From: Patescibacteria group bacterium
Lineage (GTDB): Bacteria; Patescibacteriota; Patescibacteriia; 2-01-FULL-39-33
NCBI GenBank assembly: GCA_041650895.1
Contig: JBAZKF010000001.1
Location: 145,685 to 209,684, forward strand
Direction of reading: 5' to 3'
DNA: 64,000 nucleotides
The notes under the pieces are model-generated. The model searched no databases, was not told where the DNA came from, and saw only the letters and a program-made list of their open reading frames with translations. A program made the translations under genes and the position numbers. Below, piece by piece: positions 21,368 through 64,000 of this stretch (positions within the stretch are counted from its first letter, which is position 1; each line of letters starts with the position of its first letter).

Positions 21368-21370
21368 AAG

Positions 21371-22503: not shown

Positions 22504-22524
22504 CAAAATAATAACCCCAGACAA

Positions 22525-22944
22525 CTATCTCTTGAAAGTCCAGAAACGATTTAAACTGAAATTAAAAATAGCGACAATAAACGAAGAGACGGCTTTGGCC
22601 AACAAGTCTGGAATATGCACCAATTCGATCAATAAGCTCAAAAGGCATAAATTCAATGACAAACTTATAATATTGGCAACAAAAAATTTAGCATACTGCC
22701 ATTTCAAACCAGCGCTATGATGACGGAAGGTCCACTTGCGATTCAACTCAAAACTCCAGGTTACAGCCACAGCAAAAGAAATAATGGAAGCGACAAGATA
22801 GTGCAGACCGAATAGGCGGGTCATCAGCCAATAGACGCCCAAATCAACCAAAAAATTAGATGTGCCAACCAGGCAGAATTTGATAAACTGCCGGAACAGT
22901 GACTGTTTGAATAACGGCAACTGATAAATCCTTTCTTTTATCAT
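22525..22944 (-). CDS. GtrA-family membrane protein (polyprenyl-phosphate sugar translocation-associated)
   Basis: FRQFIKFCLVGTSNFLVDLGVYWLMTRLF ... NRKWTFR matches the GtrA family consensus; four TM helices. Start uncertain (22944 or 22992). Confidence 0.72.
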   Translation of the reverse strand: MIKERIYQLPLFKQSLFRQFIKFCLVGTSNFLVDLGVYWLMTRLFGLHYLVASIISFAVAVTWSFELNRKWTFRHHSAGLKWQYAKFFVANIISLSLNLCLLSLLIELVHIPDLLAKAVSSFIVAIFNFSLNRFWTFKR

Positions 22945-23010
22945 TTTTAACATAAAAGTCAGAACCATTAACTTTATTCCATTATAACACAAATCAAATT
23001 AAGTCAAAAC

Positions 23011-23039: not shown

Positions 23040-23050
23040 TAGTTCTGTAA

Positions 23051-24400
23051 TTGATTAATATTATGACCAGTTTTATTATAAAAACCAAAAAATTACTTCT
23101 AATTTTAGGCGATATCGGCTGTCTTTATCTGGCGCTCTACCTGACTCTTTGGCTCCGTTACGGCTCGAGTTTCGACGCCAATTCCTGGCAAATCCACTAT
23201 CGCGCCTTGACTTTTATTTTTATTTTGTGGCTATTGGTTTTTTACATCAGTGATTTTTATGATCTAAAAACCAGCTATAATAACTTTTCCTTATTTTCCA
23301 TCTTATCCAAGGCCACAATAATCAACGGCATTATTGCGGTTTTAGCTTTTTATTTTCTAACTCCGTTTTTCCCCGCCATCAAACCGCAGAAAGTCTTGAT
23401 TATTGATTTGGTTATTACCTTCGCTATACTTTTTGCCTGGCGCAAAATTTTTTACGGCTTGATTAAATCGCCACAGATCGCCAACCATCTTTTGGTCATC
23501 GGACAAAAAAACCTAGCCGAAGAATTAATGAGAGAGCTGGCGCGCCGGCCCCAGTTAGGTTATAGAGCGACGCACCTCAACCAAGTTCCGGAAAATCTAA
23601 AAAAATACTGCCTGGACAGCAACATTGACATCGTTATTGCCGATAATAGCCTGCACACTGACGCCGTTACGGCAAAAAAAATCTTTGATTGTTTGTCTTT
23701 GGGCATTGATGTGCATCAACTGACTGACTTCTATGAAATCATTACGCAAAAAGTGCCGGTGGAATCGATTGAACTAGGATGGTTTCTGGAAAATCTAACT
23801 GAGAATTCCAAAAAATCATACGAGATACTCAAGCGTCTGATAGACATACTCCTATCCGGCATCGGCTTAATCGTAACAGCACCTTTCGTACCCCTTATCG
23901 CTCTCATCATTAAATTAGAAAGCCCCGGACCGATTCTCTTCCGACAGATTAGGGTGGGCAAAAACGGCAAAGAGTTTTTAGCCATTAAATTCCGCTCAAT
24001 GATTGAAAATGCAGAAAAAAACGGCGCTCAATGGGCGACAAAGAATGATTCCCGCGTTACCCGTTTCGGACGCCTAATGCGTAAAACCAGATTAGATGAA
24101 ATTCCCCAGTTGCTTAATATCCTCCGTGGCGAAATGTCCCTAATCGGTCCCAGACCGGAACGGCCGGAATTCATCCAGTCTCTCTCGCAGGAAATCCCCT
24201 TCTATAGCGAACGACTCTTAGTTAAGCCGGGTTTAGCCGGCTGGGCACAACTGCTGGGTCCAGCCTATGGCGGTTCCAAAGAAGAAACATTAGAAAAACT
24301 CAAATATGACCTATACTACGTCAAAAACCGCTCTCTGCTTCTTGATTTAAGTATTATTTTAAAGACAATTAGAGTTGTCTTAGGCGGTAGAGGCCAATAA
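23051..24400 (+). CDS. polyprenyl-phosphate hexose-1-phosphate transferase (bacterial sugar transferase, WbaP/CpsE/EpsB-like initiating enzyme)
   Basis: C-terminal domain PGPILFRQIRVGKNGKEFLAIKFRSM ... DEIPQLLNILRGEMSLIGPRPERPEF is the Bac_transf signature. N-terminal four TM helices. Confidence 0.88.
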   Translation: MINIMTSFIIKTKKLLLILGDIGCLYLALYLTLWLRYGSSFDANSWQIHYRALTFIFILWLLVFYISDFYDLKTSYNNFSLFSILSKATIINGIIAVLAFYFLTPFFPAIKPQKVLIIDLVITFAILFAWRKIFYGLIKSPQIANHLLVIGQKNLAEELMRELARRPQLGYRATHLNQVPENLKKYCLDSNIDIVIADNSLHTDAVTAKKIFDCLSLGIDVHQLTDFYEIITQKVPVESIELGWFLENLTENSKKSYEILKRLIDILLSGIGLIVTAPFVPLIALIIKLESPGPILFRQIRVGKNGKEFLAIKFRSMIENAEKNGAQWATKNDSRVTRFGRLMRKTRLDEIPQLLNILRGEMSLIGPRPERPEFIQSLSQEIPFYSERLLVKPGLAGWAQLLGPAYGGSKEETLEKLKYDLYYVKNRSLLLDLSIILKTIRVVLGGRGQ

Positions 24401-38216: not shown

Positions 38217-39551
38217 TTAGTTTAGTTTAGAAAAGTATCCTCTCAAATAAGAAAAATGGGCTACTAAACTGAAAAATGACCAATAAACTATCAATGAGAT
38301 AATGGCATTCAACGGGGAAGTCAACTTCAAAACAAAAAATATCAGAATAAACCCAGAAACAAGATTGACGAGGTTTATAGCAATAGCATAGATATTTTTA
38401 TTGATTGTCCGATAAACTGACCCCAAACCAATCGTAAAACCGGAAAAAATAATGCTTAATGACAGCGGATAAACCAGCTTAATGCTTAAATTAAATTCCG
38501 GGCCATAAACAATTCTAATAAGGTAAGGAGCGACAGCCAAAGACGCTAAGACAATGAAAAAAAATATAAACCCGGCAAAAAGCGACGATTTATAAAAATT
38601 GGCTTTTAGATCTTTAATCCCGGCAACCTTGGCTTTAGGCAACTGCACCTGCAATAAACGACTGATCGGGGTCAGAAAAACATTAGACAAAGCCAAATAA
38701 GCCAAGGCTATTTTCAGGTTAGCCACCTCCGCCGATGAAGCCAAGTAACCAAGGATTAATAAAGGCAGAATATTAAACAAACTAGCGATATTTTTATCCA
38801 CAGCCATGACAAAACCGAAATTAAAGTATTTCTTAATTTTGACCTGATAAAAATTAGATAGAATCTCACCAAACGCTGGTACTAATTCATTGCGACGAGA
38901 AAAATTACGATAGACTAAAATAGAAAAAACCATGGATCCGATAATCGTTAATAAATAACCCCAAACGATTCCGGCTAAGCCAAAACCCATAAAAACAAAA
39001 ATCACCGGTAAAAACACGGCAAAAAATTTATTAATATTCTCTGCAATAGTCAGATATTTTATCTTTCGCATGACTTGAAGCAGGTTCACTAATAAACCAA
39101 AAAATATTTGGAAGATGTAGCCGACGATTATTAATCTGGCTAATTCGCCGATCAAGCGGTTATGATAAAACCACTGGGCTAAGGCGGGAGCTAAAATAAT
39201 AGCGGCCAAGCCGAAAGTAAAGGAGATGATTAAGTTCAATTTAAAAAAATAGGTGATGATATCCTTGATATCCTGACGGCTTCTTCTGGCGTAAGCCTCA
39301 GCCAAAAGCGTCAAAGTAGCATAACCGGTGCCCCAATCCATAAATAACCCGGCAAAGCTGGCTAAAGCAAAAATCAAGGCGTAATCACCGTACGTGCCGA
39401 CGCCCAAAACCCTGGCATAAATAACAGAGGCGATCAGCGACAGACCCAAATCCCAAAAGGAGCCCCATTGCAAAACCAATAGGTCACGAAAAAATTTCAG
39501 CTTCCATAAATATTGCCAACCGGAGATGATTTTTTCTTTAATTACTTTCAT
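38217..39551 (-). CDS. oligosaccharide flippase, Wzx/MOP-superfamily (polysaccharide biosynthesis protein)
   Basis: 444 aa with 12-14 TM helices. The loop pattern and composition match Wzx-like PST transporters. Confidence 0.7.
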   Translation of the reverse strand: MKVIKEKIISGWQYLWKLKFFRDLLVLQWGSFWDLGLSLIASVIYARVLGVGTYGDYALIFALASFAGLFMDWGTGYATLTLLAEAYARRSRQDIKDIITYFFKLNLIISFTFGLAAIILAPALAQWFYHNRLIGELARLIIVGYIFQIFFGLLVNLLQVMRKIKYLTIAENINKFFAVFLPVIFVFMGFGLAGIVWGYLLTIIGSMVFSILVYRNFSRRNELVPAFGEILSNFYQVKIKKYFNFGFVMAVDKNIASLFNILPLLILGYLASSAEVANLKIALAYLALSNVFLTPISRLLQVQLPKAKVAGIKDLKANFYKSSLFAGFIFFFIVLASLAVAPYLIRIVYGPEFNLSIKLVYPLSLSIIFSGFTIGLGSVYRTINKNIYAIAINLVNLVSGFILIFFVLKLTSPLNAIISLIVYWSFFSLVAHFSYLRGYFSKLN

Positions 39552-45021: not shown

Positions 45022-45034
45022 TTTATCGATTAAG

Positions 45035-47599
45035 TTAATCATTGATATAAACCGCTTTGCAACATCTGGAACAAATCGGTAACGAATGCTTGAATAAATA
45101 TTGACGGAATTTTTGGTAATCATTGGACAGCCAAATCTCATCAGGAGTCTTATCCAATAAGCTCCCGAAAGATTTTTCAATGATATCGCACCAAACAACT
45201 TCGCCACGCTGATTAATGCGCAACTCGGGCTGCAATAATTTCAAACAAAAAGGCCGGGACGGTTTCTGACCCAAATACTGCGGTAAGTTATGATAATAAT
45301 TCAACGGAGAGAAATTAACAAAACAGCCAGTCTTAAGTCCGTACAATCTGATTTTAGCCAATTTTTTCTTCAACTCTACGGCGTCAGTATCAGGAGGAAA
45401 AATAGGATCCCTAATCTGCGTATTAAGGCGGTAATCGCGGCCCTCTTCCCAGCCAAACTCCCGATTAAAAATACTCTTGGCTTGAGCTACGTCGGCAGAT
45501 GAATAAACTTGCTCAAATAAGACATTAATTGTTGTAATGCCTAATTTTTTAGTGGTATCAATCAATTCAAAAAATTTATCTACATTATCATTAATTAACA
45601 AGGTGGCGAAAATGGTAATAGGAACTTTAGGCATTTTGGCCTGCAAAAGCTTAATGGCCCGCTCCAACCGATCAAAAGTACCCGGTACGCCCCTAATAGC
45701 GTCATGTAACTCCTTGGGACCGTCCAGCGAGGTTAGAATATCAGTCAGATGCTTATAACCCGCTAATTGATCAATATTACGCTCATTAATAAGCGTACAG
45801 TTAGTTTGAAGGATTACCCGTTTACCGAGAGAATCCCAAAAAGCAATAAGCTGCAAAATATCTTGGCGGGCGAATGGTTCGCCGCCGACTAATTTTATTT
45901 CTTCCACCTGGCTGGACATTTTTTTAAACACCTCAAGAATCTGTTCAGCTGACAATTCCTGCTGGCGTAAATTCCTATTCTCTCCTTGATAACACATCTT
46001 ACAACGCAAATTGCATCTGATGGTCGGTTCATAGCCGACTTCATAAACTAGCGGGGACTCGGTTTGAAAAGGCAGAGCCGGCGCTTGAATAAATTTTTTA
46101 ACCCTGATAATCGCCAACCTATTCCGCCGCCAATCATAAAATATTTTTGCCAGCGGAGAGATTATTGGCACGGCTTTTACCGCTTTTTTAAGCTGATGCT
46201 TATTATTTTTCAAATAAGTTAAGAATAATCCGCAATCATAAACTAAAGGCGAAAAGAAAAAGACATAAACCGGCAGGCGATAACGCGCCAAGACAAAGGG
46301 CGAGACCATCAAAGCGGTATACAGAATTATCATCACTGCAAAAATGAAAAATAGCAGTTTATCCCGATCTTTAAAATAAGAATAAATTAAGGCGATAGCC
46401 AAGGCCAGAGAACTAATACCCCATAAAGCAACACCGGCCAAATAAGTTAATAGTTTAAGATTAATCTGTTTGATGAAGTCAAAAATTCCCTGCCAGTTGC
46501 CATTCAAGATAAATCCGGTGATATCCGGTTTAGAAAACTCCCCAGTGCAAGCCGACCACATCTCGAAGTATCCGGGCTGAAAAAAGAAAGGTATTGTCCT
46601 AATCAGATGAACCTTAAGATAGCCGCCCAGATTGCCTAATATATAAGCCTTGGCCGTTTGACTGTAATAATCCAGCTCGCGATTGAATTCAGATAAGCTG
46701 ACTGACAGGCAATCGCCTTGATTGCCGATATTTTTCCCCAGAGCGCTATCGGCTTGCCGGACAATAAGATTATAAGCATCAGCGTAAGGAATTTGTCTCT
46801 GATAAGAGATCAGCGCTGGCAGATTATAAAAATAAATATTAGTATCAAATAGATTGACCAAAGCCGGCCGATTATAAACAACCTTATTCCTAATAATGAT
46901 CGGCGAAATCACCGCAAAAAATACAATCATGAAAGCAACACAACTTAACAAAATCTTGCGCCAACTCAACTTCGCCAATCCGCCGGTCGGTACGAGTTTC
47001 CGAACCAAATAAACTAAAACAAGACCGGCTGGAAATATTAAAAGCAAGGGGGAAGTATTTTGCCTAGCTAATGTTGAAATGCCGAGCCAAAAAGCGCTCA
47101 GCAACAAATCCCTGCTCTTAGCGCTGGAGAAAAATTTCAAAAAATAATATGTGCCGCCTAAAAATAACGGGATGGCCAAATTCTCGCTGACCAACAAAAA
47201 ATTATGCCAAGCCCAATAAGGTTCAATGGCAATCAAAAAAGTAACCAACAAAGAAATCTTCTCGTTAAAAAACAAGCGAACCAGCTTATAGCCGATGATT
47301 AAGGTCACGAAAGCCAAAACTACTTGCGCCAAATAAATCGTCCATTCCCCTCCCAACCAATGCAATAAGACCGAAGTCGTCAAGTAATACAATGGCGGAT
47401 GCCAATCACAGTAATCGTGAAAAATACCCAATAAAACAGAAACAGCCGGCTGAGCCTGGTTATAAAAATTCTGCCAACCGCCTTTATTTAAGCTGGCCTG
47501 CCAAAAAGTGATAAAAATTGAAATACGCACCGCCAGAAAAGCGGCGACAATGACCAGCCATGACCGATATTTAAAAACGATATTTCTTATATTTGACAT
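45035..47599 (-). CDS. fusion protein: N-terminal polytopic membrane domain (about 480 aa, GT-C-like) plus C-terminal radical SAM/SPASM domain (about 350 aa)
   Basis: The first roughly 480 aa are hydrophobic with 11-13 TM helices. Then come EPTIRCNLRCKMCYQG (CxxxCxxC), VGGEPFARQD, and a C-terminal LPICSRCCKA cluster. The C-terminal domain is similar to the stand-alone 33498..34586 protein. Confidence 0.75.
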   Translation of the reverse strand: MSNIRNIVFKYRSWLVIVAAFLAVRISIFITFWQASLNKGGWQNFYNQAQPAVSVLLGIFHDYCDWHPPLYYLTTSVLLHWLGGEWTIYLAQVVLAFVTLIIGYKLVRLFFNEKISLLVTFLIAIEPYWAWHNFLLVSENLAIPLFLGGTYYFLKFFSSAKSRDLLLSAFWLGISTLARQNTSPLLLIFPAGLVLVYLVRKLVPTGGLAKLSWRKILLSCVAFMIVFFAVISPIIIRNKVVYNRPALVNLFDTNIYFYNLPALISYQRQIPYADAYNLIVRQADSALGKNIGNQGDCLSVSLSEFNRELDYYSQTAKAYILGNLGGYLKVHLIRTIPFFFQPGYFEMWSACTGEFSKPDITGFILNGNWQGIFDFIKQINLKLLTYLAGVALWGISSLALAIALIYSYFKDRDKLLFFIFAVMIILYTALMVSPFVLARYRLPVYVFFFSPLVYDCGLFLTYLKNNKHQLKKAVKAVPIISPLAKIFYDWRRNRLAIIRVKKFIQAPALPFQTESPLVYEVGYEPTIRCNLRCKMCYQGENRNLRQQELSAEQILEVFKKMSSQVEEIKLVGGEPFARQDILQLIAFWDSLGKRVILQTNCTLINERNIDQLAGYKHLTDILTSLDGPKELHDAIRGVPGTFDRLERAIKLLQAKMPKVPITIFATLLINDNVDKFFELIDTTKKLGITTINVLFEQVYSSADVAQAKSIFNREFGWEEGRDYRLNTQIRDPIFPPDTDAVELKKKLAKIRLYGLKTGCFVNFSPLNYYHNLPQYLGQKPSRPFCLKLLQPELRINQRGEVVWCDIIEKSFGSLLDKTPDEIWLSNDYQKFRQYLFKHSLPICSRCCKAVYIND

Positions 47600-47610
47600 A
47601 GTATTTTCTG

Positions 47611-49050: not shown

Positions 49051-49068
49051 AATAGAAAATACTAAAAA

Positions 49069-49764
49069 TTAAAAACGATATTTAATCAGGGTCCAAATAG
49101 CAATTAAACCGTCGCGAAGTTTTATCTTTTTACCTTCTTCTTGCGAGCGGGGAATATAGGAAATCGGCACTTCATGAATCTTAACGCCCTGCCGAGAAAT
49201 CTTGGCTGTTATTTCCGGACAGAATTCAAAACCCTTGGCTTCAATATTTATCTTATCCAAAACTTGTTTGCTGACCATTTTATAGCAAGTCGCCTCATCT
49301 GTTATGGCAGTGCCGTAAAGAAAATTAGTCAACCAAGTCAGATAGACTCCACCCAAATAATAAAACCAGCCGGCCTTAGGACTTTTCTTTCTGGTCAATC
49401 CTAAACGCCTAGAACCATAAACCGCTTGAGCGCCGCATTCTTCTGCTTCATTTATCAATCTTTTCAGATCATTGGGATTATATTCTAAATCAGCATCCTG
49501 AACGACAGCATAATCGCCGGTTGACACTTTGTAACCGGCAGCTACGGCCGCGCCCTTGCCTTGATTTTCAGGCAGATGGATAATGATATATTTATCCTGA
49601 TAGCGATCAAGCACTTCTCGGGAATTATCGGTGGAACCGTCATTGACTATAATAATTTCTTTGTTAACGCCTAAATCAGCTTCCGACAATTTTTGTAAAA
49701 TAGCCCCGATGGTTTTTGCTTCGTTGTAGGCCGGAATAACAATGGAAAGTTTATTGATTTTCAT
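49069..49764 (-). CDS. glycosyltransferase family 2, soluble DPM1-like (paralog of 57163..57858)
   Basis: LSIVIPAYNEAKTI ... IIVNDGSTDNS ... QDADLEYNP. Confidence 0.85.
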   Translation of the reverse strand: MKINKLSIVIPAYNEAKTIGAILQKLSEADLGVNKEIIIVNDGSTDNSREVLDRYQDKYIIIHLPENQGKGAAVAAGYKVSTGDYAVVQDADLEYNPNDLKRLINEAEECGAQAVYGSRRLGLTRKKSPKAGWFYYLGGVYLTWLTNFLYGTAITDEATCYKMVSKQVLDKINIEAKGFEFCPEITAKISRQGVKIHEVPISYIPRSQEEGKKIKLRDGLIAIWTLIKYRF

Positions 49765-51553: not shown

Positions 51554-53709
51554 TTTTTTGTTTTTACTAAATAACACATTTGATGGCCGAACATATTAGG
51601 CCAAATATCTTTAAGACGAAAACCATTAGACGATTTAAATCTAACAACATCTAGACCCAAATCATTCAGCCAAATCAAAAAATCCTTATGGCTCCAAAAC
51701 CGCAGGTGTTCTGACGGATGTGTCATCCATTGGGTAAAAAATCTTCCTCCAAACATTAAGCCGAAACGATAACGGTAAAAAGCGGAATTAGGAACTGAAA
51801 TTGCCAAATAGTCGGCATTATCTTTTATTTTAGAGATTAAATCCTCGGGATATTTGATGTGTTCCAAAACCTCTGAAATCACAATGTAATCATATCGGTC
51901 GTCCAAATTAAAATCAGCGCTCTCGATATCGGCTTTTACTCCGTCAATGCCGGCTTGCTTTAAGTTATTGATTACTAATCCGGAAATATCCAAACCACTG
52001 ACCCGGCAACCCTTCTTTTCTTTTAATTCATAAGGCAGACGCGAACTGCCACAGCCAAGATCCAGAATTTTAGCTCCGGGCTTAATCCAATCCATAAAAA
52101 TCACTTCCCTTTCCATTAATTTGCTACGCATCTTGAAGCCGCGCTCTGACCAATACTGATCATAATCAAGTTGTTTGGTGATATTTTTGAAATCAGGGCG
52201 ACGCGTACCCTCAAAGAAGAACGATTTCGAGACGCGAGCTATGATTTTGTCAAAATAATACTTAAGCGCGCGCTTGACTTTGAATAATATAAAATCTAAA
52301 CGCTCTTTTTTGTTACCCAACTTAAGCCAGATTTTTGCCAGCTTCAAAAAGTGGGTTAAGCCTCTCTTTTTTACGCCCTCAAATATCTCCTGACGCCAAC
52401 TCTCAAATAATTTTCCCAACTCCTGGGAATCACTGACGCCAGAACGATTGAATTTGTCCTGGCTTTGGAAAAAAGAGAAATTACAATAATCGGAGGTATT
52501 GATACGACCCTTAAAAAAATCATTAAAAAGCTTCGTCCCTGGCAGGGCGGTAAAGATACTGAAAGAATAATGATCAGCTTTGATTTTCTTGGCGAATTCA
52601 AAGGTTTGCCGCATTTCTTCTTTAGTTTCGCCGGGCAGGCCGATCATAAAGCCGGCTTCGCGACGGATGCCGTGTTTCCGGCAAAGTTCCAGGGCTTTTT
52701 CCACATCGGATAATTTTATCCTTTTATTAATGATTTCATCTAAAACGCGCTGATTACCCGATTCAACGCCAAAATCAAGCTGTAAACAGCCACTTTCGGC
52801 CATTAACTTGATGATTTCTTCATTAACCAAATCCACTCGCGATTGAGCCCCCCAATACAGACCGGCTTCCTTCATAATCTGGCAAACCTTCCTAACATGA
52901 TCGTAATTAGCCGTTAAGGTATCATCAGCAAACCAAATTCCTTCAACGCCATATTTATCCCTTAAAAGATAGATTTCTTTTTTGATGTTTTCCAAACTGC
53001 GATAACGCACCTGACGCCCAAAAACCTGATTGCAGGCGCAAAAAGTGCAGCTGTAGGGACAGCCCCGGGAAGCCATAACCATCACCGCTTTCATAGGGAT
53101 GCCTCGGATAATATCGTCCCAGATCTTAGTATAGTAGGTCATATTCACCTTATCATAAGCCGGCAAGCTTAAATCAGTCAGATCCATATACTCCCGCCGT
53201 TCATTGATGACAACTTCATTATTCTGATCCGGCCAGGCGATGCCCTTCACCTTCCTTAGATCGGGCGACTCCTGCTGTAATTCCTTAATTAATTCAAAAG
53301 TAGTTTGTTCGCCTTCGCCGATAATGGCGGCATCAAAGCCGGAATTAACTACGCCAATCGGATCGGCTGTAGCTTGAGGCCCGCCGATAATCGAAAAAAC
53401 TTTGAGTTCTTTTTTAATCCTCTGATTCATTTCCACAGCTTCGGCAATTTCCATGGTCGTGGCAGTAAAACCGATTACTTGCGGCTTAAACTCTAAAACA
53501 GCCTTAATGATCTCCTCCTTGGCTCTTTCACGATTATCGTATTGATAGCCTCTGTCCGCGAATATTTTCCCGTCGATAATCAAATTATCAAAACCATGAT
53601 CCCGCAAATATCCGGAAATATACATCAAACCCAAAGAATAACGATGCTCCTTGAGCCGTTTAGGGGGAAGAATAAAAATCAAATCTTTATCTTGGCTAAT
53701 TTTTATCAT
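51550..53709 (-). CDS. fusion: cobalamin-binding radical SAM (paralog 8) plus C-terminal class I SAM-dependent methyltransferase domain
   Basis: TDLSLPAYD and ASRGCPYSCTFCACNQ in the N-terminal 470 aa. The C-terminal 200 aa carry ILDLGCGSSRLPY ... YDYIVISEVLEHI (MT motifs I and II). Confidence 0.85.
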   Translation of the reverse strand: MIKISQDKDLIFILPPKRLKEHRYSLGLMYISGYLRDHGFDNLIIDGKIFADRGYQYDNRERAKEEIIKAVLEFKPQVIGFTATTMEIAEAVEMNQRIKKELKVFSIIGGPQATADPIGVVNSGFDAAIIGEGEQTTFELIKELQQESPDLRKVKGIAWPDQNNEVVINERREYMDLTDLSLPAYDKVNMTYYTKIWDDIIRGIPMKAVMVMASRGCPYSCTFCACNQVFGRQVRYRSLENIKKEIYLLRDKYGVEGIWFADDTLTANYDHVRKVCQIMKEAGLYWGAQSRVDLVNEEIIKLMAESGCLQLDFGVESGNQRVLDEIINKRIKLSDVEKALELCRKHGIRREAGFMIGLPGETKEEMRQTFEFAKKIKADHYSFSIFTALPGTKLFNDFFKGRINTSDYCNFSFFQSQDKFNRSGVSDSQELGKLFESWRQEIFEGVKKRGLTHFLKLAKIWLKLGNKKERLDFILFKVKRALKYYFDKIIARVSKSFFFEGTRRPDFKNITKQLDYDQYWSERGFKMRSKLMEREVIFMDWIKPGAKILDLGCGSSRLPYELKEKKGCRVSGLDISGLVINNLKQAGIDGVKADIESADFNLDDRYDYIVISEVLEHIKYPEDLISKIKDNADYLAISVPNSAFYRYRFGLMFGGRFFTQWMTHPSEHLRFWSHKDFLIWLNDLGLDVVRFKSSNGFRLKDIWPNMFGHQMCYLVKTKK

Positions 53710-55514: not shown

Positions 55515-56589
55515 AGGCTTTTTTGATATTAACGACTAAATTTTTAATACTATAAGAAGCTACGACAATGCGACGCAACTCAACAGCCATAACCTGCTTC
55601 TCGGATGAATCCAATTCAGACAATTTCTTTATTTTGACCGCCAATTCCCGACTGTCAGCTTTTTCCAATAATAACAAATCTTGGTAGTCGCCCAGGATCA
55701 CGGAAAAAGTTTGATTATAAACTACGGCCGGCACGCCACAGGCCAACGATTCCAAAACCACTTTGTCCAATCCCCCGGTGGGGCACAAGTTAATGCTTAA
55801 ATCGGCTTGCTGATAATAATAAGGCAGGTCCTTATTGGGGATATTGCCTATCCAATCAATATAATCTTCCAGTCGGCGTTTTTTTATTTCCTCTTTCAAT
55901 AAGGCAGCGTATCTCAAACCATCAAGATTCGGCGGTGAGCCGATAAAAGACAAGGTGATATTTTTTATTCCTAATTCATGCACCAAAATATCAACAGCTT
56001 TAATCAATAATAATTGATTTTTTATTTCGCTGATCCGGCCGACGCTGACGATTTGTAATTTATCCTGTCGAGCCGTCGCCCAATCTTTAAGACAGAATTT
56101 ATCAATATCAATGCCATGGCCGACGATTTTCACTTTGGCACTAGCAAGCCGGAAACTTTCGGGCGAGGCGGTAAAAATAATATCAGCCAACAATTCAGCT
56201 AATCTTAATTTAAAATTAACCGCTTTATGCGCATACCAGAGGCCGATAATTTTGCCCTGCAAACGCCAGATCAAACCAGCCAGAATGACATAAACAACAT
56301 TCATGTGAACAAAAACAGCATCATAATCATGGCGAACCAACCATAAATATTTATAAAAACGCCACAAGTAACGCCAACGCGACGGCCTGTCTTCCTTGCC
56401 CAAAGATAAAACCCTGACATTGGCAGGCAAATCATACTTACCTTTATATAGGCAGATAACAGTCACTTGAGAAAAATTATTGGCAAACTCTTTAAGCCAA
56501 TCATGAAAAAATCCCAACAGACCGTCGGCGTCATCCACTTTCTGAGTCAAGATTAATAATTTCAATTTTTTATTTTTTGGCAATGGCAT
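55498..56589 (-). CDS. glycosyltransferase family 4
   Basis: KVVLESLACGVPAVVYN near the C-terminus; about 363 aa. Confidence 0.75.
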   Translation of the reverse strand: MPLPKNKKLKLLILTQKVDDADGLLGFFHDWLKEFANNFSQVTVICLYKGKYDLPANVRVLSLGKEDRPSRWRYLWRFYKYLWLVRHDYDAVFVHMNVVYVILAGLIWRLQGKIIGLWYAHKAVNFKLRLAELLADIIFTASPESFRLASAKVKIVGHGIDIDKFCLKDWATARQDKLQIVSVGRISEIKNQLLLIKAVDILVHELGIKNITLSFIGSPPNLDGLRYAALLKEEIKKRRLEDYIDWIGNIPNKDLPYYYQQADLSINLCPTGGLDKVVLESLACGVPAVVYNQTFSVILGDYQDLLLLEKADSRELAVKIKKLSELDSSEKQVMAVELRRIVVASYSIKNLVVNIKKAYGEEN

Positions 56590-57172
56590 ATAAATTCAAA
56601 CCTAATTCGAAGCTGCCGCCGGTGATTTTATCGGCCGCAAAGCCGGTGGCGGAAAACTGTTTAAATAATTCCTGTCGACTATAGAACTGCTGATGCTCAC
56701 CGATCTCATCCGGTGAAACTATTTTAAACGCGGCCAATAACGACAGCAGACCCTTAGTTTTTCCCCAGGGAGTCGTCACTATAAGCAACCCGCCGGGAAC
56801 AAGCGCTCGATAAGATTGAGCCAGAATATTTAAAGCCGCGGTTTCATCCAAATGTTCCAAAACTGCCAGCATGGTTACAACATTAAAACAACTGGGACTG
56901 ACCGGCAAATTATCGCCGGTTTTGAATTCGTATTTTTTTAAGCTAACTCCGTCGATCATTCCTTCGCTGACCGATTTATCCAATCCGACTTTGGCCGAAA
57001 ACTTAACCTGCGCCAAAAAATAAGGATAAGAACCGCAGCCGATATCAAGAATAGCTCCCGACCTTAAATCAGCAGGAATCAACCTGTCAACTTTATTAGC
57101 CCGACGCCGGGCCAAGTATTTCTCTAAGACGCCATACCCCCTGGTAGGAGCGGCGGAACCGGTTATTTCCAT
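56570..57172 (-). CDS. class I SAM-dependent methyltransferase
   Basis: ILDIGCGSYPY and VVTMLAVLEHL. Confidence 0.8.
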   Translation of the reverse strand: MEITGSAAPTRGYGVLEKYLARRRANKVDRLIPADLRSGAILDIGCGSYPYFLAQVKFSAKVGLDKSVSEGMIDGVSLKKYEFKTGDNLPVSPSCFNVVTMLAVLEHLDETAALNILAQSYRALVPGGLLIVTTPWGKTKGLLSLLAAFKIVSPDEIGEHQQFYSRQELFKQFSATGFAADKITGGSFELGLNLYAIAKK

Positions 57173-57858
57173 AAGTTAAACTTAATAATATACCAAATCG
57201 CCGCCAAACCATCTTTCCAGCTTATTTTCTTGCCCTCTTCATAAGTGCGGCCGGCATAAGAAATACCGACTTCATAAATCCGGAATTTACCCCTGGCTAT
57301 CAGGGCGGTAATCTCCGGTTCAACGCCGAATCGATTGGCAGTCAGGCGAGTTTTCAGATAATCAATAACCGGACGATTGAACGCCTTATAGCAAGTCTCC
57401 ATATCTGTTAAGGTCAAATTACTCATAATATTGGAAAAAATAGTCAAAAAAGTATTACCCAGATAATGCCAAAAAAAGAAAACACGGTGAGGTTTGCTGG
57501 TAATGAAACGAGAACCATAAACAACATCAGCCTTGCCGTCAATTATCGGCCCCAATATTTCCTGGTACTCTTGCGGATTGTATTCTAAGTCAGCGTCTTG
57601 AATAATCAATAGATCGCCGGTTGCCACATTAAGGCCACGTTTGATGGCCGAGCCTTTGCCCTCGTTCTTATCCTTTAGAATTACGACGCATTTATCCCGC
57701 GGGCTTGAAATAATATCTCTAGTGCCGTCGGTGGAACCATCATCAATAATAATAATTTCCTTCTCTACGCCGGCAAGCGGCGCTGCCTCCACCTGGCGCA
57801 GTAGTTCCAAGATAGTTTTATGTTCATTATAGACTGGTATGATAACTGACAATTTCAT
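57163..57858 (-). CDS. glycosyltransferase family 2, soluble DPM1-like (paralog of 49069..49764)
   Basis: LSVIIPVYNEHKTI ... IIIDDGSTDGT ... QDADLEYNP. Roughly 45% identical by eye to 49069..49764. Confidence 0.85.
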   Translation of the reverse strand: MKLSVIIPVYNEHKTILELLRQVEAAPLAGVEKEIIIIDDGSTDGTRDIISSPRDKCVVILKDKNEGKGSAIKRGLNVATGDLLIIQDADLEYNPQEYQEILGPIIDGKADVVYGSRFITSKPHRVFFFWHYLGNTFLTIFSNIMSNLTLTDMETCYKAFNRPVIDYLKTRLTANRFGVEPEITALIARGKFRIYEVGISYAGRTYEEGKKISWKDGLAAIWYIIKFNLWK

Positions 57859-57873
57859 AAAAATAATTAATAT

Positions 57874-59346
57874 TTAATCGCGTTTAGTATTGATGTCCGG
57901 AGATTTAGGCAAGAAAAAAGAGACTAAAGCCATAAAACCATCAAACAAAATTTTTATATCGTCTAATGATCTAATGCTAAAAATCTTCTTAAGGATGAAT
58001 TTCGGACGAAAATAAAAACTGCGATACATGATTTTATATAAATTCTTTATTTCTTCCGCTGAAAGATTCTCCAATCTCATAACCGGCTTAGCCAAATTAA
58101 AATCATCCCAATTTTCGCTCAACAACAAATCACGTTCCTTGGCCCAATTAAACATGGCCGTGCCGGGAAACGGCGTAGTAATATTGACGATCAGCAAATC
58201 GGGATTTATTTTCTTAACAAAACGGATGTTCTTTTCAATCACTTGGCGACTGTCGCCGGGATTGCCGACCATGAAAGCCAGACGGCATTCTATCCCCGCC
58301 TGCTTAGTCCATTTGACGGCATTGATCACTTGCGGCAAATTGATTTTTTTATTGATATTCTTCAATACGGCCTCATCAACATTTTCCACCCCATACATGA
58401 TCTGATGACAACCGGCGTCTGACATTTTCCGCAACATGGCCTCGTCAACATAATCAACTCGGGCAAAACACGTCCAAGACAAATCCATTTTATTTTTTAT
58501 CAGCAGATCGCACAAGTCAATGACGTTCTGACGAAAAACAGTAAAAGTATCATCATAAAACATGATCTGCCTGATACCGTAATTATCGGCCAAGTATTTT
58601 ATCTCGGCAAAAATCCCGGTGGCCGACTTAAAGATCATCTGATCACCCAAGGTTTTATTGCAGAAAGTGCAACGCCCCGGACAACCTCGGCTAGTCATTA
58701 AACTCATGGCCGGCAACTTCTTATACGAGCCCTTAGCCGGCCGATATTTATCAATCGGCAATAAATCATAAGCCGGCAAAGGCAGATCATCCAAATTGGC
58801 AATCCGCCGACGCGGCGCGTTACGGATTATTTGTTTTTCGCCATTCAATTCTTTCTTATAAACCACGCCGTCAATCTCTTCAATCTTCTTGCCGGATAAT
58901 ATTTCTCCCAAAGTAATCTCCCCTTCGCCGATAACCACCGCATCAACAAATGGTTGATTAATAACCTCATCAGTAACAAAGGTTGCATGAACGCCACCGA
59001 AAATAATCAAAGCATTAGGATAATATAATCGGCAAATTTCCGCCGCCTGATAAGCCTTTTTAATTTGTCCGGTGGTGGCAGTAAAGCCGATCACTCTAAT
59101 ATCCCTGTGATGATCAACAAAATTTTCCTTTAGATAATCGCCGAAGGCCTGGACCGAGGGGCAGGAAACTTCACAATCAATTATCTCTACACTTTGATCC
59201 TGTTGACGGACATAGCCGGCAATGGAAGCCAGCCCCAAAGGAGGGAAATTTGAGTTAATCTCACGCCAAATATTATTCTCATCGCCATAATAATCAGGCG
59301 GAGCGATCAACAAACAATCCAAATTTTTTTGATTATCTTGCGACAT
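57874..59346 (-). CDS. cobalamin-binding radical SAM enzyme, paralog 9
   Basis: DDLPLPAYDLLP, TSRGCPGRCTFCNKTL. Confidence 0.9.
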   Translation of the reverse strand: MSQDNQKNLDCLLIAPPDYYGDENNIWREINSNFPPLGLASIAGYVRQQDQSVEIIDCEVSCPSVQAFGDYLKENFVDHHRDIRVIGFTATTGQIKKAYQAAEICRLYYPNALIIFGGVHATFVTDEVINQPFVDAVVIGEGEITLGEILSGKKIEEIDGVVYKKELNGEKQIIRNAPRRRIANLDDLPLPAYDLLPIDKYRPAKGSYKKLPAMSLMTSRGCPGRCTFCNKTLGDQMIFKSATGIFAEIKYLADNYGIRQIMFYDDTFTVFRQNVIDLCDLLIKNKMDLSWTCFARVDYVDEAMLRKMSDAGCHQIMYGVENVDEAVLKNINKKINLPQVINAVKWTKQAGIECRLAFMVGNPGDSRQVIEKNIRFVKKINPDLLIVNITTPFPGTAMFNWAKERDLLLSENWDDFNLAKPVMRLENLSAEEIKNLYKIMYRSFYFRPKFILKKIFSIRSLDDIKILFDGFMALVSFFLPKSPDINTKRD

Positions 59347-59351
59347 AGCTT

Positions 59352-61559
59352 TTAAAGGAATCGACTAAAAAACGCTCTGAATCCGTCACTGGTCAACAAC
59401 CATAAATAGTCAACCAAAACAATAACGATAACGACCGCAACCCGACTCGGCCAGCGGTAAAAATATTTTCTTAACCCGTTAACGGCCAACAAGGTTAATA
59501 GCAAAGCCAGGACAAAATACAAACGAGATGACACACCGGTCCAAAGCAAAAACATAAACGACGGCAGAATCAGGCACTTAACCAGGAACCTCTGATCGGC
59601 GGTAAACTCCCGCCATTTAATCAATCCTAACGGCACCAAAAGCCAAGCAGCCAGATAAACGCCGACGATACTCTTAACAACAAAAAACGGCTGATATTCG
59701 GAACCGCTGGGAGCGCTAATGCCCAGTTTATACCAATCCAAATATGAATAATGATAAATGAAATAAACCACGATTTGCCAAGCGATTAAGGGCAAGCCGA
59801 CCGCTAAGGTTGATAAAAATAATTTTTTGAGTTTTTCGGCTCGAGGCAGTTGCGGATGGAAACATATCACCAGATACAGGAAAGCCATACCCAAACTGCT
59901 ATATTCTTTCCATAACATGCCAACAACAACCATCAACGAAGTTAAAAATAAATTAAAGTTGTTAGGCCGTTTATAAAATCTAATGACGCCGATAGCGGCC
60001 AAAACCCAGAATAATTGGGCGCCCGACTCGGTAAACAAATCCAAGCCATACTTAAGTAACGGATAGGAAGAAATATAAATCAACGCTCCCAGAAGCGCCA
60101 TTCCTCTATTTTTAAAAAACAAATAAAATAAAACGTAAACGGCTAAAGCCAAAAAAACATAAAATATAATCGCCTCTATCTCAAAAGCTAACGATAGATT
60201 GCCACCGGTTAAAAACGACAGTCCGGCAATACCCATAGGCCCCAACGGTTTTAAAATTCTGGAAGGAAAACTCTCCGCCATTTGTCCCATAAACAGCTTA
60301 GCCGTTTCCATATACTGATAAGCATCGCCGTTAATGCTAAAACCGACAAAATTGAGCCGAATAAACACGTTCAACGCTACCGCGGTTAAGATTAAAAGAA
60401 TCGGCCAAAAATGATTATTGGTCGACTTGGTCGGCCGGCACTTTTTGTCTATGGCTGTTTGCCAGCTTTTCAGATAAAGCGCCAAATTTTCCTCTCGGCC
60501 GGGCAAAATGTTAATCGCCGATTCGGCCGACTGGCTGAGTTGCCGGCGCAAGCCAATATTCTGAATAATCTTTTTCATGGCGTCAGCTAATTTTTCTTCG
60601 TCGCCAACGGGCGTGATTAATGCGCTGACTCCGTCTTTCAACACCTCACCGGCGCAACCGACATCAGTCATCACTACCGCCAAACCGCAACTGGCGGCTT
60701 CTATTATCACCATCCCCCAACCCTCATAATCAGAACTCAAAACATAACTATCGGCTGAGTTGTAATAATCATAAATATTGTCAGTCCAACCGATCAAAAA
60801 GATTTTATCCTCCAAGCCGGATTCTTTTATTTGTTGGGCGAGTTTGTCTTTTTCCGGACCGCGACCGACTATAAGCAAAACCGCCTCCGGCAATTGCCGG
60901 GCAACCGTGGCGAAAGCTCTGATCAGCAACGGCAGATTTTTCTGTTTTACCAATCGAGCCATAGTCAAAAAAACAGTTTTGCCGACTAAGCGGCCGAAAA
61001 TCTCCGGCTTAGTTTCGCTGAATTGCTTCTCGGGCTTAACATAGACAGGAACAACAACAATTTTATCTTCGGCTATATGCAAATCATTAACCAAAGTATC
61101 CTTTATCCGCTCACTGACTGCGCGCACGCTGTCGGCTCGCTTAATCAGCCAGCGCCCCAGATAATAACGGCAAAAGTTAATAGGATTTTCATTGCGCCAA
61201 TAAGTCGCGCTAAAAAAATCGCCATGTTCCTGAATATTCAAAGCGCTCTTGAATTTCCTAGCCAGCAATAATCCCATCAGCGACAATTCAAAAGGATCTT
61301 GAACCGTTATGACATCATAATTATTCTGGCGGAACAGTTTTTTCGCTAACCGATACATATTGAATAGTGCCGCTAATCGGTTGCCGCCACCCGTGCCGTA
61401 AGCCGTTACTTTTTCTGATAATTTAATTTCTTGCGCTGGCGTAGCGGGCACGATAATATCATAAGCGTCCGTCATAACGCCATACTCAATCAAACGCCGA
61501 GTTACGGGTGATGAGGAAACGAATACGCCTTTATCGGTGCCTAAGTTTAATACTTTCAT
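59352..61559 (-). CDS. fusion: N-terminal GT4 glycosyltransferase (about 370 aa) plus C-terminal polytopic membrane domain (about 360 aa)
   Basis: DYEGWGMVIIEAASCGLAVVMTDVG (GT4 EX7E region) at about aa 280-305. From about aa 375 onward there are 10-11 TM helices (WPILLILTAVALNVF ...). Confidence 0.75.
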   Translation of the reverse strand: MKVLNLGTDKGVFVSSSPVTRRLIEYGVMTDAYDIIVPATPAQEIKLSEKVTAYGTGGGNRLAALFNMYRLAKKLFRQNNYDVITVQDPFELSLMGLLLARKFKSALNIQEHGDFFSATYWRNENPINFCRYYLGRWLIKRADSVRAVSERIKDTLVNDLHIAEDKIVVVPVYVKPEKQFSETKPEIFGRLVGKTVFLTMARLVKQKNLPLLIRAFATVARQLPEAVLLIVGRGPEKDKLAQQIKESGLEDKIFLIGWTDNIYDYYNSADSYVLSSDYEGWGMVIIEAASCGLAVVMTDVGCAGEVLKDGVSALITPVGDEEKLADAMKKIIQNIGLRRQLSQSAESAINILPGREENLALYLKSWQTAIDKKCRPTKSTNNHFWPILLILTAVALNVFIRLNFVGFSINGDAYQYMETAKLFMGQMAESFPSRILKPLGPMGIAGLSFLTGGNLSLAFEIEAIIFYVFLALAVYVLFYLFFKNRGMALLGALIYISSYPLLKYGLDLFTESGAQLFWVLAAIGVIRFYKRPNNFNLFLTSLMVVVGMLWKEYSSLGMAFLYLVICFHPQLPRAEKLKKLFLSTLAVGLPLIAWQIVVYFIYHYSYLDWYKLGISAPSGSEYQPFFVVKSIVGVYLAAWLLVPLGLIKWREFTADQRFLVKCLILPSFMFLLWTGVSSRLYFVLALLLTLLAVNGLRKYFYRWPSRVAVVIVIVLVDYLWLLTSDGFRAFFSRFL

Positions 61560-61567
61560 CTCAATAA

Positions 61568-63013
61568 TTATTTAGTAATAAATTTCTTGGCCAATTTAAA
61601 TTCCACCGGCCAGAAAAAAAATTTCAATTTCCAACGCAGTTTACATAAACAAATAAAACAGAATTTGAGTAATTTATTGGAAGAGACAGTTGAATTCATC
61701 GCGCTCTTGAATGACAAGGCGCCGAATCTGACATAGGCCTCCATTGATTCCACAAAGTCCTTGTCCTTAACCCAAGGAAAATTCTCTACTGACATGTAGC
61801 TCAACTCGTTCTCTGAAACCTTTTTCCATTCCTCAAGCGACTGCGGTTCCCGCCAGCCGGCCTTGACGCATTCCTCATATAACTCTGATCCGGGGTAGGG
61901 GCGAAACGCTTGAGGGCCCAAAATCTGGACCTCGTCGCTTAAGGCGATTAAGCGATCAATCAACCTCAGGGTTTCCTGCATATCACTCCGCGACTCGCCA
62001 GGCAAACCAATCATGAATGAATACTGAGGTATGATGCCATGCTTGAGGCAGGCCTTAGCGGAAGCGACTATGTCATCGGCGGTAACGTCTTTTTTGATCA
62101 TTTTTAAGATACGGCTACTGCCGGATTCGGCGCCGAAAGACAACAAATAACAGCCGGACTGCTTTAACTTGGCTAAAAGTTCATCATCCACCATCCCCGG
62201 CTTAAGGTAATCGGCGCGAATAGTGGTTTCCCAAGGCAAAACCAGATCTTCCCTAATCATGCCGTCAATGATCGCCTTAGCGCGGCTGATATCCACAAAA
62301 AAGTTCTCGTCCCAAAAACGCAATTTCTTGCCCTGGAAATACTCCTTGGCCTTAATTATCCGTAAATCCTCAAGCACCTGCTCGGTCGTCCGAGCGCGCC
62401 AATGATTTTTCAAAATCGCATTAATGCAAAAAGTACAACGATGCGGACAACCGCGCGAAGTTAGAGAAGGAATCAAATATAGATGCTCTCTGATTTCCTG
62501 AGGCACTAAATCCCAATTAAATAACGGCATGGCTTGGGGTTGATGCAGGGGTTGCGGCTGATTGACAATAACTCTCCCGTCAGCGCAATAAGCGAGGCCT
62601 TTGATTTCTGCCAGGGATCGGCCTCGCGCCAACTGCAACATGGTTTCTTCGCCTTCGCCGATAACTACTATATCAATCAGCGGATTTTTGGCTGTCTGCT
62701 CAATAAAAAAAGTCGGATGCGATCCGCCCCAAACAATTTGGGCGGCGGGATTGATTCTTCTGGCCAACTCGGAGATTTTCAAGGCATTGGAGATCTGCAT
62801 GGTCATAACTGAAACACCGATCAAATCAAAATCCTTAATCGCTTGCTCCAATAAGCTCAAATAATCCTTCTGCCTGACGCCGTCTATCATCTTGACCTCC
62901 ACTCCTTGACTATCTAAGTAGGTGGCAATACTCAACAAACCGACAGAAATAGAGCTGTCGTAATTATCTTTAACTATATTAAATTCGGGATTGATCAGTA
63001 AAACTTTTTTCAT
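61568..63013 (-). CDS. cobalamin-binding radical SAM enzyme, paralog 10 (most divergent)
   Basis: MKKVLLINPEF, QAMPLFNWDLVP, TSRGCPHRCTFCINAI. Confidence 0.85.
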   Translation of the reverse strand: MKKVLLINPEFNIVKDNYDSSISVGLLSIATYLDSQGVEVKMIDGVRQKDYLSLLEQAIKDFDLIGVSVMTMQISNALKISELARRINPAAQIVWGGSHPTFFIEQTAKNPLIDIVVIGEGEETMLQLARGRSLAEIKGLAYCADGRVIVNQPQPLHQPQAMPLFNWDLVPQEIREHLYLIPSLTSRGCPHRCTFCINAILKNHWRARTTEQVLEDLRIIKAKEYFQGKKLRFWDENFFVDISRAKAIIDGMIREDLVLPWETTIRADYLKPGMVDDELLAKLKQSGCYLLSFGAESGSSRILKMIKKDVTADDIVASAKACLKHGIIPQYSFMIGLPGESRSDMQETLRLIDRLIALSDEVQILGPQAFRPYPGSELYEECVKAGWREPQSLEEWKKVSENELSYMSVENFPWVKDKDFVESMEAYVRFGALSFKSAMNSTVSSNKLLKFCFICLCKLRWKLKFFFWPVEFKLAKKFITK

Positions 63014-64000
63014 TGCATTTTTTTCAATAAATCAACGGTTTGATCCACTGTCTGCCGCCAAGAAAAATCTTTCAGCTTGACTGTTGCCGCTTCGGTCAGC
63101 TTTTGAGCCAAAGGACGGTCAGTCAATAGTCGGAAAATCGCTTCAATTAATTGTTTTTGATTATTGTAGTTTACCAGCAAGCCGTTCTGGCCGTCTGTAA
63201 TAACCTCGGGATTGCCGCCGACGTCAGTGGCGATTACCGGCGCCCCGGCTTTTATGGCTTCCAATAATGTATGGGACAGGCCTTCATAATTGGTGTTTAA
63301 AACAAAAACATCGGCGTGACTGAAATATTCCAAAACTTTTTCATGCGGTACGCGATCAAGAAACTTTATTTGCTCGGCCAGTTTCAAAGACTGAGCCAGG
63401 TTCTGCAGATTCTCTAACTCCGGACCATCGCCCAAAACGATCAAATAGGCCCGACCCAAACGCTTGATGATTTCCGGCATCGCCCGGATTAATTGATCCA
63501 CGCCCTTCCATTTGGTTAACCGGCAAGCCGTCATAATTATGGAACCGTCGTTAGGCAGATTAATGGGGGCTGATTTATTAACGCTAACCTCATCGCCAAA
63601 ATCAATCGCATTATATATGACATTTATTTTGGCTAAGTCAACGCCGATCAGCTTGGCCAAATCGCCCATAAAATTGCTGACGGCAATAATCGCATCGGCT
63701 TCCAATAATATCCGGCGGCGACGCGCTTTCATTCTTTCAATTTGTTGATTATAAATATTCTTTTCAAAGTCGGTGATGTAATCGGTTGTCCAGCCGTTAG
63801 CGGTGGCTGTTTCCCAGGCGGCATCGCCGGCAAACCTGACTAAATATTTTTTCTTGGTTATTTTTTTTATCAAATTGGCAAACCAGCCGACACTGTAGAT
63901 ATCGGTTACATAAATCAGGTCGGCGTTAAAAGACAGGAAAAGCATAGCCAAAAAATAATGCAACCGACTGAAAACTTTATTTTTTGCCACTCGATAAACG
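63010..64000 (-). CDS. glycosyltransferase family 4 (N-terminus probably beyond the right edge)
   Basis: YEGLSHTLLEAIKAGAPVIATDVGGNPE in the C-terminal domain. The visible N-terminal portion looks mid-domain, so the true start is likely past position 64000. Confidence 0.7.
   Translation of the reverse strand, partial: VYRVAKNKVFSRLHYFLAMLFLSFNADLIYVTDIYSVGWFANLIKKITKKKYLVRFAGDAAWETATANGWTTDYITDFEKNIYNQQIERMKARRRRILLEADAIIAVSNFMGDLAKLIGVDLAKINVIYNAIDFGDEVSVNKSAPINLPNDGSIIMTACRLTKWKGVDQLIRAMPEIIKRLGRAYLIVLGDGPELENLQNLAQSLKLAEQIKFLDRVPHEKVLEYFSHADVFVLNTNYEGLSHTLLEAIKAGAPVIATDVGGNPEVITDGQNGLLVNYNNQKQLIEAIFRLLTDRPLAQKLTEAATVKLKDFSWRQTVDQTVDLLKKMQ

Follow-up and report, generated by a model that had tools for sequence, protein, structure and literature searches.

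The 64,000-nucleotide stretch of Patescibacteria DNA analysed here (contig JBAZKF010000001.1, positions 145,685 to 209,684; below, the window) carries on its minus strand, at 59352..61559, a gene for a 735-residue protein in which a complete cytoplasmic glycosyltransferase of family 4 (GT4, of the GT-B fold) is joined to a small membrane domain that is assigned, from its predicted structure, to the GT-C fold. The fusion is real, tidy and informative, without amounting to a novel type of system: both halves come from well-understood superfamilies, so that no new chemistry is implied. Our preferred reading, to which we give a probability of about 0.6, is that the protein is a bifunctional glycosyltransferase that has one active site on each side of the membrane and would use them for successive steps on one lipid-linked glycan; within this reading we infer the substrates, the order of the steps and the action of both domains on the same molecule.

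Architecture of the fusion protein

The open reading frame (ORF), delimited by the ORF call, Pfam and a database match, starts with ATG and runs through 735 residues without an internal stop, and its translation is identical to entry P0001, 'MAG: glycosyltransferase [Patescibacteria group bacterium]', encoded on a contig of 957,791 bp. On the minus strand, the GT4 domain (residues 1-372, 60444..61559; defined by Pfam, the EX7E motif and the model) is followed by a linker of about 8 residues (373-380, 60420..60443), which the full-length model and the ends of orthologues place within the basic stretch DKKCRPTKSTNN, and by the compact GT-C-fold membrane domain (residues 381-735, 59355..60419; defined by hydropathy, model and Foldseek). 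In the full-length AlphaFold2 model, which has a predicted local distance difference test score (pLDDT) of 93.6, the last helix of the GT4 domain (355-372) leads through the linker, the sole lower-confidence stretch between the two domains, into the first transmembrane (TM) helix, TM1 (381-405).

The same architecture is present in independent assemblies, with full-length relatives at 88, 82, 50 and 44% identity, and a Candidatus Buchananbacteria genome in GTDB carries the fusion at 82% identity. Because of these relatives, and because stand-alone GT4 orthologues terminate at ...LYxxSW(Q/E)xA, exactly where the fusion enters the basic linker and TM1, the fusion is not an artefact; a frameshift or assembly error is ruled out by the intact ORF and five independent assemblies. 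A preliminary description of the window, made from the sequence letters, had named a frameshift near 60450 as a possible source of error; none is present, and the junction (nucleotides 60420-60443) lies close to that position. The same description had proposed a complete GT4 fused to a membrane domain of about 360 residues with 10-11 TM helices, which is borne out by the uninterrupted ORF with both its domains and by the 11 TM helices modelled in residues 381-735.

The N-terminal half is a complete GT4 (GT-B) glycosyltransferase. Pfam recognises Glyco_transf_4 (PF13439) at residues 49-174 (52.0 bits, cut-off 28.5) and Glycos_transf_1 (PF00534) at residues 184-346 (138.9 bits, E 1.6e-40, cut-off 26.4), and the EX7E motif (E279..E287), R202 and K207 are invariant in 14 orthologues, five of them fused and nine stand-alone. 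The motifs HGDFFS (112-117) and RLVKQKN (202-208) are kept in fused and stand-alone orthologues alike, the closest solved relatives by sequence match are BshA, TarM and PimA, and the N-terminus has no signal peptide. A defence-system reading, raised by a match to PF20706 ('GT4-conflict', 37 bits), was rejected, as this match overlaps far stronger generic GT4 matches and the context is a glycan cluster.

Strongly hydrophobic 19-residue segments were found in a Kyte-Doolittle scan only at residues 385-725, save for a buried core strand of the GT4 domain at 280-302, and the TM character of the C-terminal half is thus seen in hydropathy as well as in the 11-helix model. Modelled alone with AlphaFold2, on a 52-sequence alignment, this half reached a pLDDT of 92.7 and a predicted template modelling score (pTM) of 0.91; the model comprises 11 TM helices, one of them broken, and a first outside loop that bears two juxtamembrane helices, and at about 355 residues it has no soluble extracytoplasmic domain. 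In a structural search, with Foldseek giving the same set, the predicted domain superposes on solved GT-C enzymes including ALG12, ALG9, ALG3 and PimE, at a sequence identity of only 10-17%; the oligosaccharyltransferase (OST)-type enzymes AglB, PglB and STT3 are among the best matches, and the catalytically inactive GT-C folds PIGU/GAB1 are also found. The membrane half is, as modelled, a compact GT-C-fold glycosyltransferase. Wzy, WaaL and GT-C folds had all been offered for comparison at the outset, and solely GT-C fits, by fold and by Pfam, since Pfam reports no Wzy_C (PF04932) domain and the structural search returned neither a Wzy nor a WaaL chain; in related loci, Wzy_C proteins have genes of their own.

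The family to which this GT-C domain belongs consists mostly of stand-alone proteins of 335-392 residues, and the named records are Patescibacteria (Paceibacteria, Kaiserbacteria and others). A profile search of 1.84 billion representatives gave 1,246 matches at E<=1e-3, of which 167 also reached E<=1e-30, with stand-alone proteins forming the majority among the top 150 representatives. Alignment A1 comprises 12 sequences, namely four C-terminal halves of fusions (window protein, P0003, P0004 and P0005) and eight stand-alone or GtrA-fused homologues, and half of them (6/12) match PMT_2 (PF13231) directly, with a best E of 1.5e-9. Many family members carry a precomputed PF13231 or the name 'glycosyltransferase family 39 protein', and the C-terminal half of the window protein scores below the PMT_2 gathering cut-off (26.1 bits); the subfamily would best be described as a divergent sister group on the fringe of PMT_2 and not as an unambiguous member. 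Compared with the PMT_2/GT39-GT83-like bacterial GT-C enzymes (ArnT, PMT), the window domain differs in lying below the Pfam thresholds, in having 11 helices and no periplasmic or luminal domain, and in its family's own motifs SDAYxY, RILKPLxP, YPxLKYGLDLxTETGA, LWKEYS and VSSRLYF.

Thirteen residues (D412, R434, K437, P438, L439, Y499, P500, Y504, G505, K551, E552, W639 and R679) are invariant in 52/52 family members and all are kept in the window protein, and none of the four fusion sequences in A1 deviates at any column invariant there. All invariant polar residues fall on predicted outer loops or helix ends. D412 (codon 60324..60326, minus strand) opens helix 411-423, the first outside juxtamembrane helix, the second loop helix being 439-451. 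GT-C enzymes, as known from ArnT, PglB, PMT and ALG6, carry their catalytic Asp where this helix begins, and by analogy D412 is presumably the candidate catalytic base, equivalent to the Asp in the first external loop (EL1) of solved GT-C enzymes. On the loops predicted by the model, Lys and Arg number 14 in 59 residues inside versus 7 in 104 residues outside, and four of those seven are invariant. The positive-inside rule therefore holds for the predicted N-in topology with the active-site loops outside, and the charge pattern fits the N-in orientation imposed by a cytoplasmic GT4. Since both sets of catalytic motifs are conserved, each half looks capable of catalysis, the GT4 site on the cytoplasmic side and the GT-C site on the outer one.

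Conserved partners and other architectures

Two genes downstream of the fusion, a polyprenyl/dolichyl-phosphate glycosyltransferase-like GT2 of 231 residues without TM helices is encoded (57163..57858, minus), whose best solved relatives are DPMS (5.8e-18), ArnC (~1e-17) and GtrB (6e-10), and which we propose makes the lipid-phosphate-sugar that the GT-C domain would use as donor. A small GT2 adjoins or is fused to the GT-C family in all contexts examined (window, L001-L006). Between fusion and GT2 lies a gene for a B12-binding radical S-adenosylmethionine (SAM) enzyme of 490 residues (57874..59346, minus), a position kept in L001, L002 and L006, and a second such enzyme of 481 residues (61568..63013, minus) is encoded directly upstream of the fusion, as it is in L001, L002, L006 and L007. 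A class I SAM methyltransferase of 200 residues (56570..57172, minus) belongs to a conserved module of GT-C, GT2 and methyltransferase, because it trails the GT2 in L001, L004, L005 and L006. The assignments of the GT2, the methyltransferase and the radical SAM enzymes all lie below curated equivalog cut-offs. The window shares with L001/L006 (82%) the order fusion, B12-binding radical SAM, GT2 (231 residues) and methyltransferase (200 residues); L002 (50%) has fusion, B12-binding radical SAM and GT2 (231 residues), followed by a gene cut by the contig end; L003 has GT-C and a GT2::GtrA fusion, L004 a GtrA::GT-C fusion, GT2 and methyltransferase, and L005 GT-C, GT2 and methyltransferase.

GT2, GtrA and GT-C are all adjacent or fused in L003, L004 and P0169, and this combination is, by gene content, the signature of three-component glycosylation with a polyprenyl-phosphate-sugar. 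The window encodes a small membrane protein of the GtrA family (22525..22992, minus; PF04138, E 1.3e-32) beside an epimerase and a PpgS-like GT2; it is a candidate flippase or membrane partner, whose tie to the fusion we infer. The stretch 20705-24400 in which it lies comprises, on the minus strand, the PpgS-like GT2 (220 residues; NF058614, E 1.3e-48, below cut-off), an NAD-dependent epimerase/dehydratase and GtrA, and this sub-module is divergent from the gene of a WbaP/PglC-type initiator (Bac_transf, 23051-24400, plus strand).

The GT4 half has partners of its own. A further GT4 ('GT4_up', 63010..64000, minus) is encoded upstream and runs past the window end: its frame is open through the last codons, so that the 326-residue ORF with GTG start is an N-terminally truncated view, and the L001 orthologue has 383 residues. 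In 11 of the 12 GTDB loci bearing a relative, the GT4 half is a stand-alone gene for about 375 residues, and the GT4_up orthologue, its conserved partner ahead of it in L006-L017, is its direct neighbour in most of these loci (L008-L010, L012-L014, L016 and L017). GtrA stands immediately upstream of GT4_up in L008, L012 and L013 and is fused to it in L009, L010 and L014. The expectation of the preliminary description that GT4 enzymes are normally separate from such membrane domains agrees with these 11 loci and with most of the top 150 membrane-domain representatives, and the window gene is, on the evidence of gene order, one that unites two separable modules.

The GtrA::GT4 fusions (536-557 residues), from other Patescibacteria, are located at 7290-8897 in L009, 7137-8765 in L010 and 6957-8627 in L014, and in each of these loci the stand-alone orthologue of the GT4 half follows directly. 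Because GtrA is fused here to a Leloir GT4, it may serve as a membrane anchor or lipid-carrier-binding module and not as a flippase only. Two loci from records titled 'uncultured Gammaproteobacteria bacterium', L010 (CAYWNT010000002.1) and L013 (CAYTAV010000006.1), carry the same GtrA / GT4 / GT4 module at 43-48% identity, which could reflect mis-binning, mislabelling or horizontal transfer.

The GT4::GT-C fusion itself is rare. Within the top 150 GT-C representatives it is limited to five close relatives (two clusters at 50% identity, P0002 and P0005) and P0108, and it was found in one GTDB species. P0108 (1,354 residues) consists of GT2, a GT4_up-like domain, a domain like the GT4 half and GT-C, colinear with the gene order of the window, and P0014, P0017 and P0018 have the same GT4 clade fused to other, canonical PMT_2 domains. 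These PMT_2 domains gave no match to the present GT-C family by phmmer, which suggests that the three proteins stem from independent fusion events. Given the colinearity of P0108 and the recurrence of the GT4 clade with other PMT_2 domains, the link between the GT4 and GT-C modules is not accidental. Other architectures include at least six GT2::GT-C fusions among the top family representatives and P0169 (714 residues), a GT2::GtrA::GT-C protein with all three components in one chain. P0163 (765 residues) has an N-terminal GT-C domain followed by about 430 residues without a Pfam match.

The suggestion of the preliminary description that steps are physically coupled at the membrane gains from the repeated fusions (P0108; P0014, P0017, P0018), but there is evidence against its being obligatory: the fusion is seldom found, separate genes are normal and, in L007, the GT4 orthologue has no adjacent GT-C. 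Database records name the fusion protein simply 'glycosyltransferase', and neither a GT4/GT-B::GT-C fusion nor a study of a Patescibacteria GT-C enzyme was found in reviews or full-text literature searches, which does not prove absence. The fusion is apparently undescribed; both domains belong to known superfamilies and the GT-C subfamily is uncharacterised.

Proposed mechanism and competing readings

According to the bifunctional reading, the cytoplasmic GT4 would be tethered at the inner leaflet by its basic linker of about 8 residues and, acting right after the upstream GT4, would add a sugar from a nucleotide sugar, with retention, to a membrane-bound and probably polyprenyl-(di)phosphate-linked glycan. 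The minimal GT-C domain, with an outward site formed by the invariant D412, R434, K437, Y504, E511, K551, E552 and R679, would take one sugar from a polyprenyl-phosphate-sugar and attach it, after export, to the glycan or its final acceptor. The donor would be made by the neighbouring DPMS/ArnC-like GT2 (57163..57858), may be tailored by the co-conserved methyltransferase and B12-binding radical SAM enzymes, and may be flipped, or its passage assisted, by a GtrA-type protein. That the GT-C domain uses a lipid-phosphate-linked donor is suggested indirectly, through adjacency or fusion of its family to DPMS/ArnC-like GT2 and to GtrA. The cluster also encodes a Wzx-type flippase (38217..39551) and the WbaP/PglC-type initiator (23051..24400).

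Several points weigh against this reading. The functional roles of both subfamilies are drawn from sequence, model and gene context. Searched alone, residues ~370-735 gave no Pfam family match, PMT_2 included, at E<=10, and a sequence-profile search of the PDB with the 12-sequence alignment gave none at E<=10 either, so that the fold was established from the predicted structure; D412 is, by position, a putative counterpart of the catalytic Asp in solved GT-C enzymes. The GT4 half reached no NCBIfam equivalog cut-off, all its NCBIfam matches being lower, and the best NCBIfam models of the window GT2 (AglJ, ArnC, PgfS and PpgS) were every one below cut-off. The single GtrA of the window lies about 36 kb from the fusion, and in L007 (56% identity) the order is radical SAM, GT4 and GT2 with no GT-C nearby. 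Conserved partners differ between the two halves, which are usually encoded by separate genes, and L004 and L005 hold the GT-C without this GT4, so that each activity could be directed at a different molecule.

Among the alternatives, the one that survives best, and which we still consider unlikely, has the GT4 pair building the donor of the GT-C domain by extending a polyprenyl-phosphate-linked sugar to a short lipid-linked oligosaccharide, which would be flipped by a GtrA-type protein and transferred en bloc by GT-C in the manner of an OST or ligase. Such a scheme would account for the tight association of the GT4 pair with GtrA (upstream in L008, L012 and L013, fused in L009, L010 and L014), for the presence of AglB, PglB and STT3 among the best structural matches and for P0108, where GT2, two GT4 domains and GT-C share one chain; but the GT-C family occurs mostly with a small DPMS/ArnC-like GT2 alone and no GT4 (L004, L005, the GT2::GT-C fusions), as is typical of monosaccharide donors, and it has no soluble extracytoplasmic domain such as OSTs use for acceptor recognition.

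It is quite improbable that the GT-C half is mainly an anchor or scaffold holding the GT4 at the inner leaflet in place of the GtrA anchor of its relatives, with any outward catalysis incidental or unrelated. The GT4 module of the relatives does use GtrA, separate or fused, as its membrane element, the halves differ in their conserved partners, and inactive GT-C folds exist, PIGU/GAB1 being among the structural matches; however, all 13 invariant residues are kept, including D412, R434, K437, K551, E552 and R679, no invariant column of A1 is lost in its fusion sequences, and the partners of the GT-C domain itself (GT2, methyltransferase) are still encoded just downstream. We give just as little credence to a PMT-like protein O-glycosyltransferase acting on a secreted or surface protein, the GT4 step being unrelated and the fusion reflecting co-regulation only: the MIR-type luminal domain of PMTs is absent, the cluster is of polysaccharide type and, besides numerous GT4 and GT2 genes, includes those of a WbaP/PglC-type initiator and a Wzx flippase, and similarity of fold does not separate acceptors, as ALG12, AglB and ArnT score nearly as high.

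A bolder form of the bifunctional reading, which we regard as very unlikely, is that of a single-polypeptide trans-bilayer unit in which the GT4 completes a lipid-linked intermediate at the inner leaflet and the GT-C domain itself conveys this intermediate, and perhaps translocates it, to the outward site, so that synthesis, flipping and glycosylation are coupled; if this were true, the apparently independent GT4::GT-C fusions P0014, P0017, P0018 and P0108 would mark a general, unrecognised coupling. A Wzy polymerase or WaaL ligase, favoured by nothing more than the a-priori expectation for a 10-12-helix protein in a glycan cluster, is refuted, as is an assembly or frameshift artefact.

The bifunctional reading has parallels in known pathways and proteins. 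In the eukaryotic dolichol pathway, ALG2/ALG11 (GT4) act before ALG3/9/12 (GT-C), with Dol-P-Man from DPM1 (GT2), and in the synthesis of mycobacterial phosphatidylinositol mannosides and lipomannan, PimA/PimB' (GT4) act before PimE (GT-C), with polyprenyl-P-Man from Ppm1. Both pathways resemble the proposed scheme in having cytoplasmic nucleotide-sugar GT4 steps followed by a GT-C on the opposite face that uses a polyprenyl-P-sugar from a DPMS-like GT2; GT4 and GT-C are separate proteins there, whereas they form one polypeptide here. Ppm1 of M. tuberculosis (Rv2051c), a precedent for catalytic domains on both sides of the membrane in a single chain, has a polyprenyl-P-mannose synthase of the GT2 type in the cytoplasm, joined to an Lnt-like membrane domain, and is encoded by two genes in related species. 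It shares with the window protein the natural union of a cytoplasmic glycosyltransferase and a polytopic membrane enzyme whose site faces outward, as well as the split in relatives, but it pairs GT2 with an acyltransferase instead of GT4 with GT-C, and the chemistry differs. The three-component systems that have been reviewed are GtrA/GtrB/GtrC, CsbB/GtcA/YfhO, GacI/GacJ/GacK/GacL, ArnC/ArnE-F/ArnT and PpgS/Rv3779 (PMC8035078, PMC11127046). The window has in common with them a polyprenyl-phosphate GT2-like gene, a GtrA and a GT-C predicted to face outward, whose family is also fused to GT2 and GtrA. It departs from them in the fusion of its GT-C to a cytoplasmic Leloir GT4, in the unusually small size of the GT-C (about 355 residues, no soluble domain), in a GT2 without TM helices, and in the B12-binding radical SAM and methyltransferase genes interleaved with the module.

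To our knowledge, the cell-surface glycans of Patescibacteria are essentially uncharacterised. The fusions act as a Rosetta stone, in that a specific GT4 clade, a DPMS-like GT2, GtrA and a GT-C are tied into one Patescibacteria pathway by the window gene together with the GT2+GT4+GT4+GT-C and GT2::GtrA::GT-C proteins. Having Leloir and non-Leloir sites across the membrane in one protein offers a direct route to ask whether cytoplasmic and extracytoplasmic glycan steps are physically coupled. At about 355 residues, the GT-C domain would be near a minimal GT-C enzyme and, because it is a membrane core without a soluble domain, is attractive for structural and mechanistic work.

The surrounding glycan cluster

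The fusion gene lies in a cluster (27833-63013) that includes ten genes for B12-binding radical SAM enzymes, located at 27833-29251 (plus strand), 29255-30682, 35551-36975, 39562-41058, 42255-43670, 43672-45207, 47611-49050, 51550-53709, 57874-59346 and 61568-63013; two further radical SAM genes are at 33498-34586 and 45035-47599. Genes for GT4, GT2, GT9, methyltransferase, deacetylase and Wzx proteins lie in between. Such a density of B12-binding radical SAM enzymes is unusual for a glycan cluster and points to extensive C-methylation, or some other radical-based modification, of sugars or lipid carriers.

The gene at 45035-47599 (minus) encodes an 854-residue protein with an N-terminal PMT_2 GT-C domain (PF13231, residues 67-218) followed by radical SAM and SPASM domains. 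This neighbouring protein, the 'membrane-rSAM fusion' of the preliminary description, is indeed a second GT-C (PMT_2) fusion; the wording of that description, with assembly and tailoring steps coupled, goes further than the data do. No second copy of the GT-C family was found by a local hidden Markov model search of all window ORFs. hhalign of the family profile against the 45035..47599 protein was not significant (probability 0.6%, E 0.099), and the two GT-C domains of the cluster are, judging by this comparison, not close paralogues. A trio of GT-C fusion, B12-binding radical SAM enzyme and 231-residue DPMS/ArnC-like GT2 is repeated at 45035-49764 and 57163-61559 (both minus), and the double occurrence of this three-gene pattern hints that the B12-binding radical SAM enzyme acts on the polyprenyl-phosphate-sugar donor.

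Elsewhere in the cluster, 51550-53709 (minus) encodes a 719-residue protein composed of a B12-binding radical SAM enzyme and a MetW-like class I SAM methyltransferase, which occupies the same position in L001. The 611-residue product of 31653-33488 (minus) has no Pfam or NCBIfam match and its gene adjoins one of the LPG_synthase_TM family (30679-31653). At the far end of the window, positions 1-2000 have a GC content of 0.516, compared with about 0.40-0.45 elsewhere.

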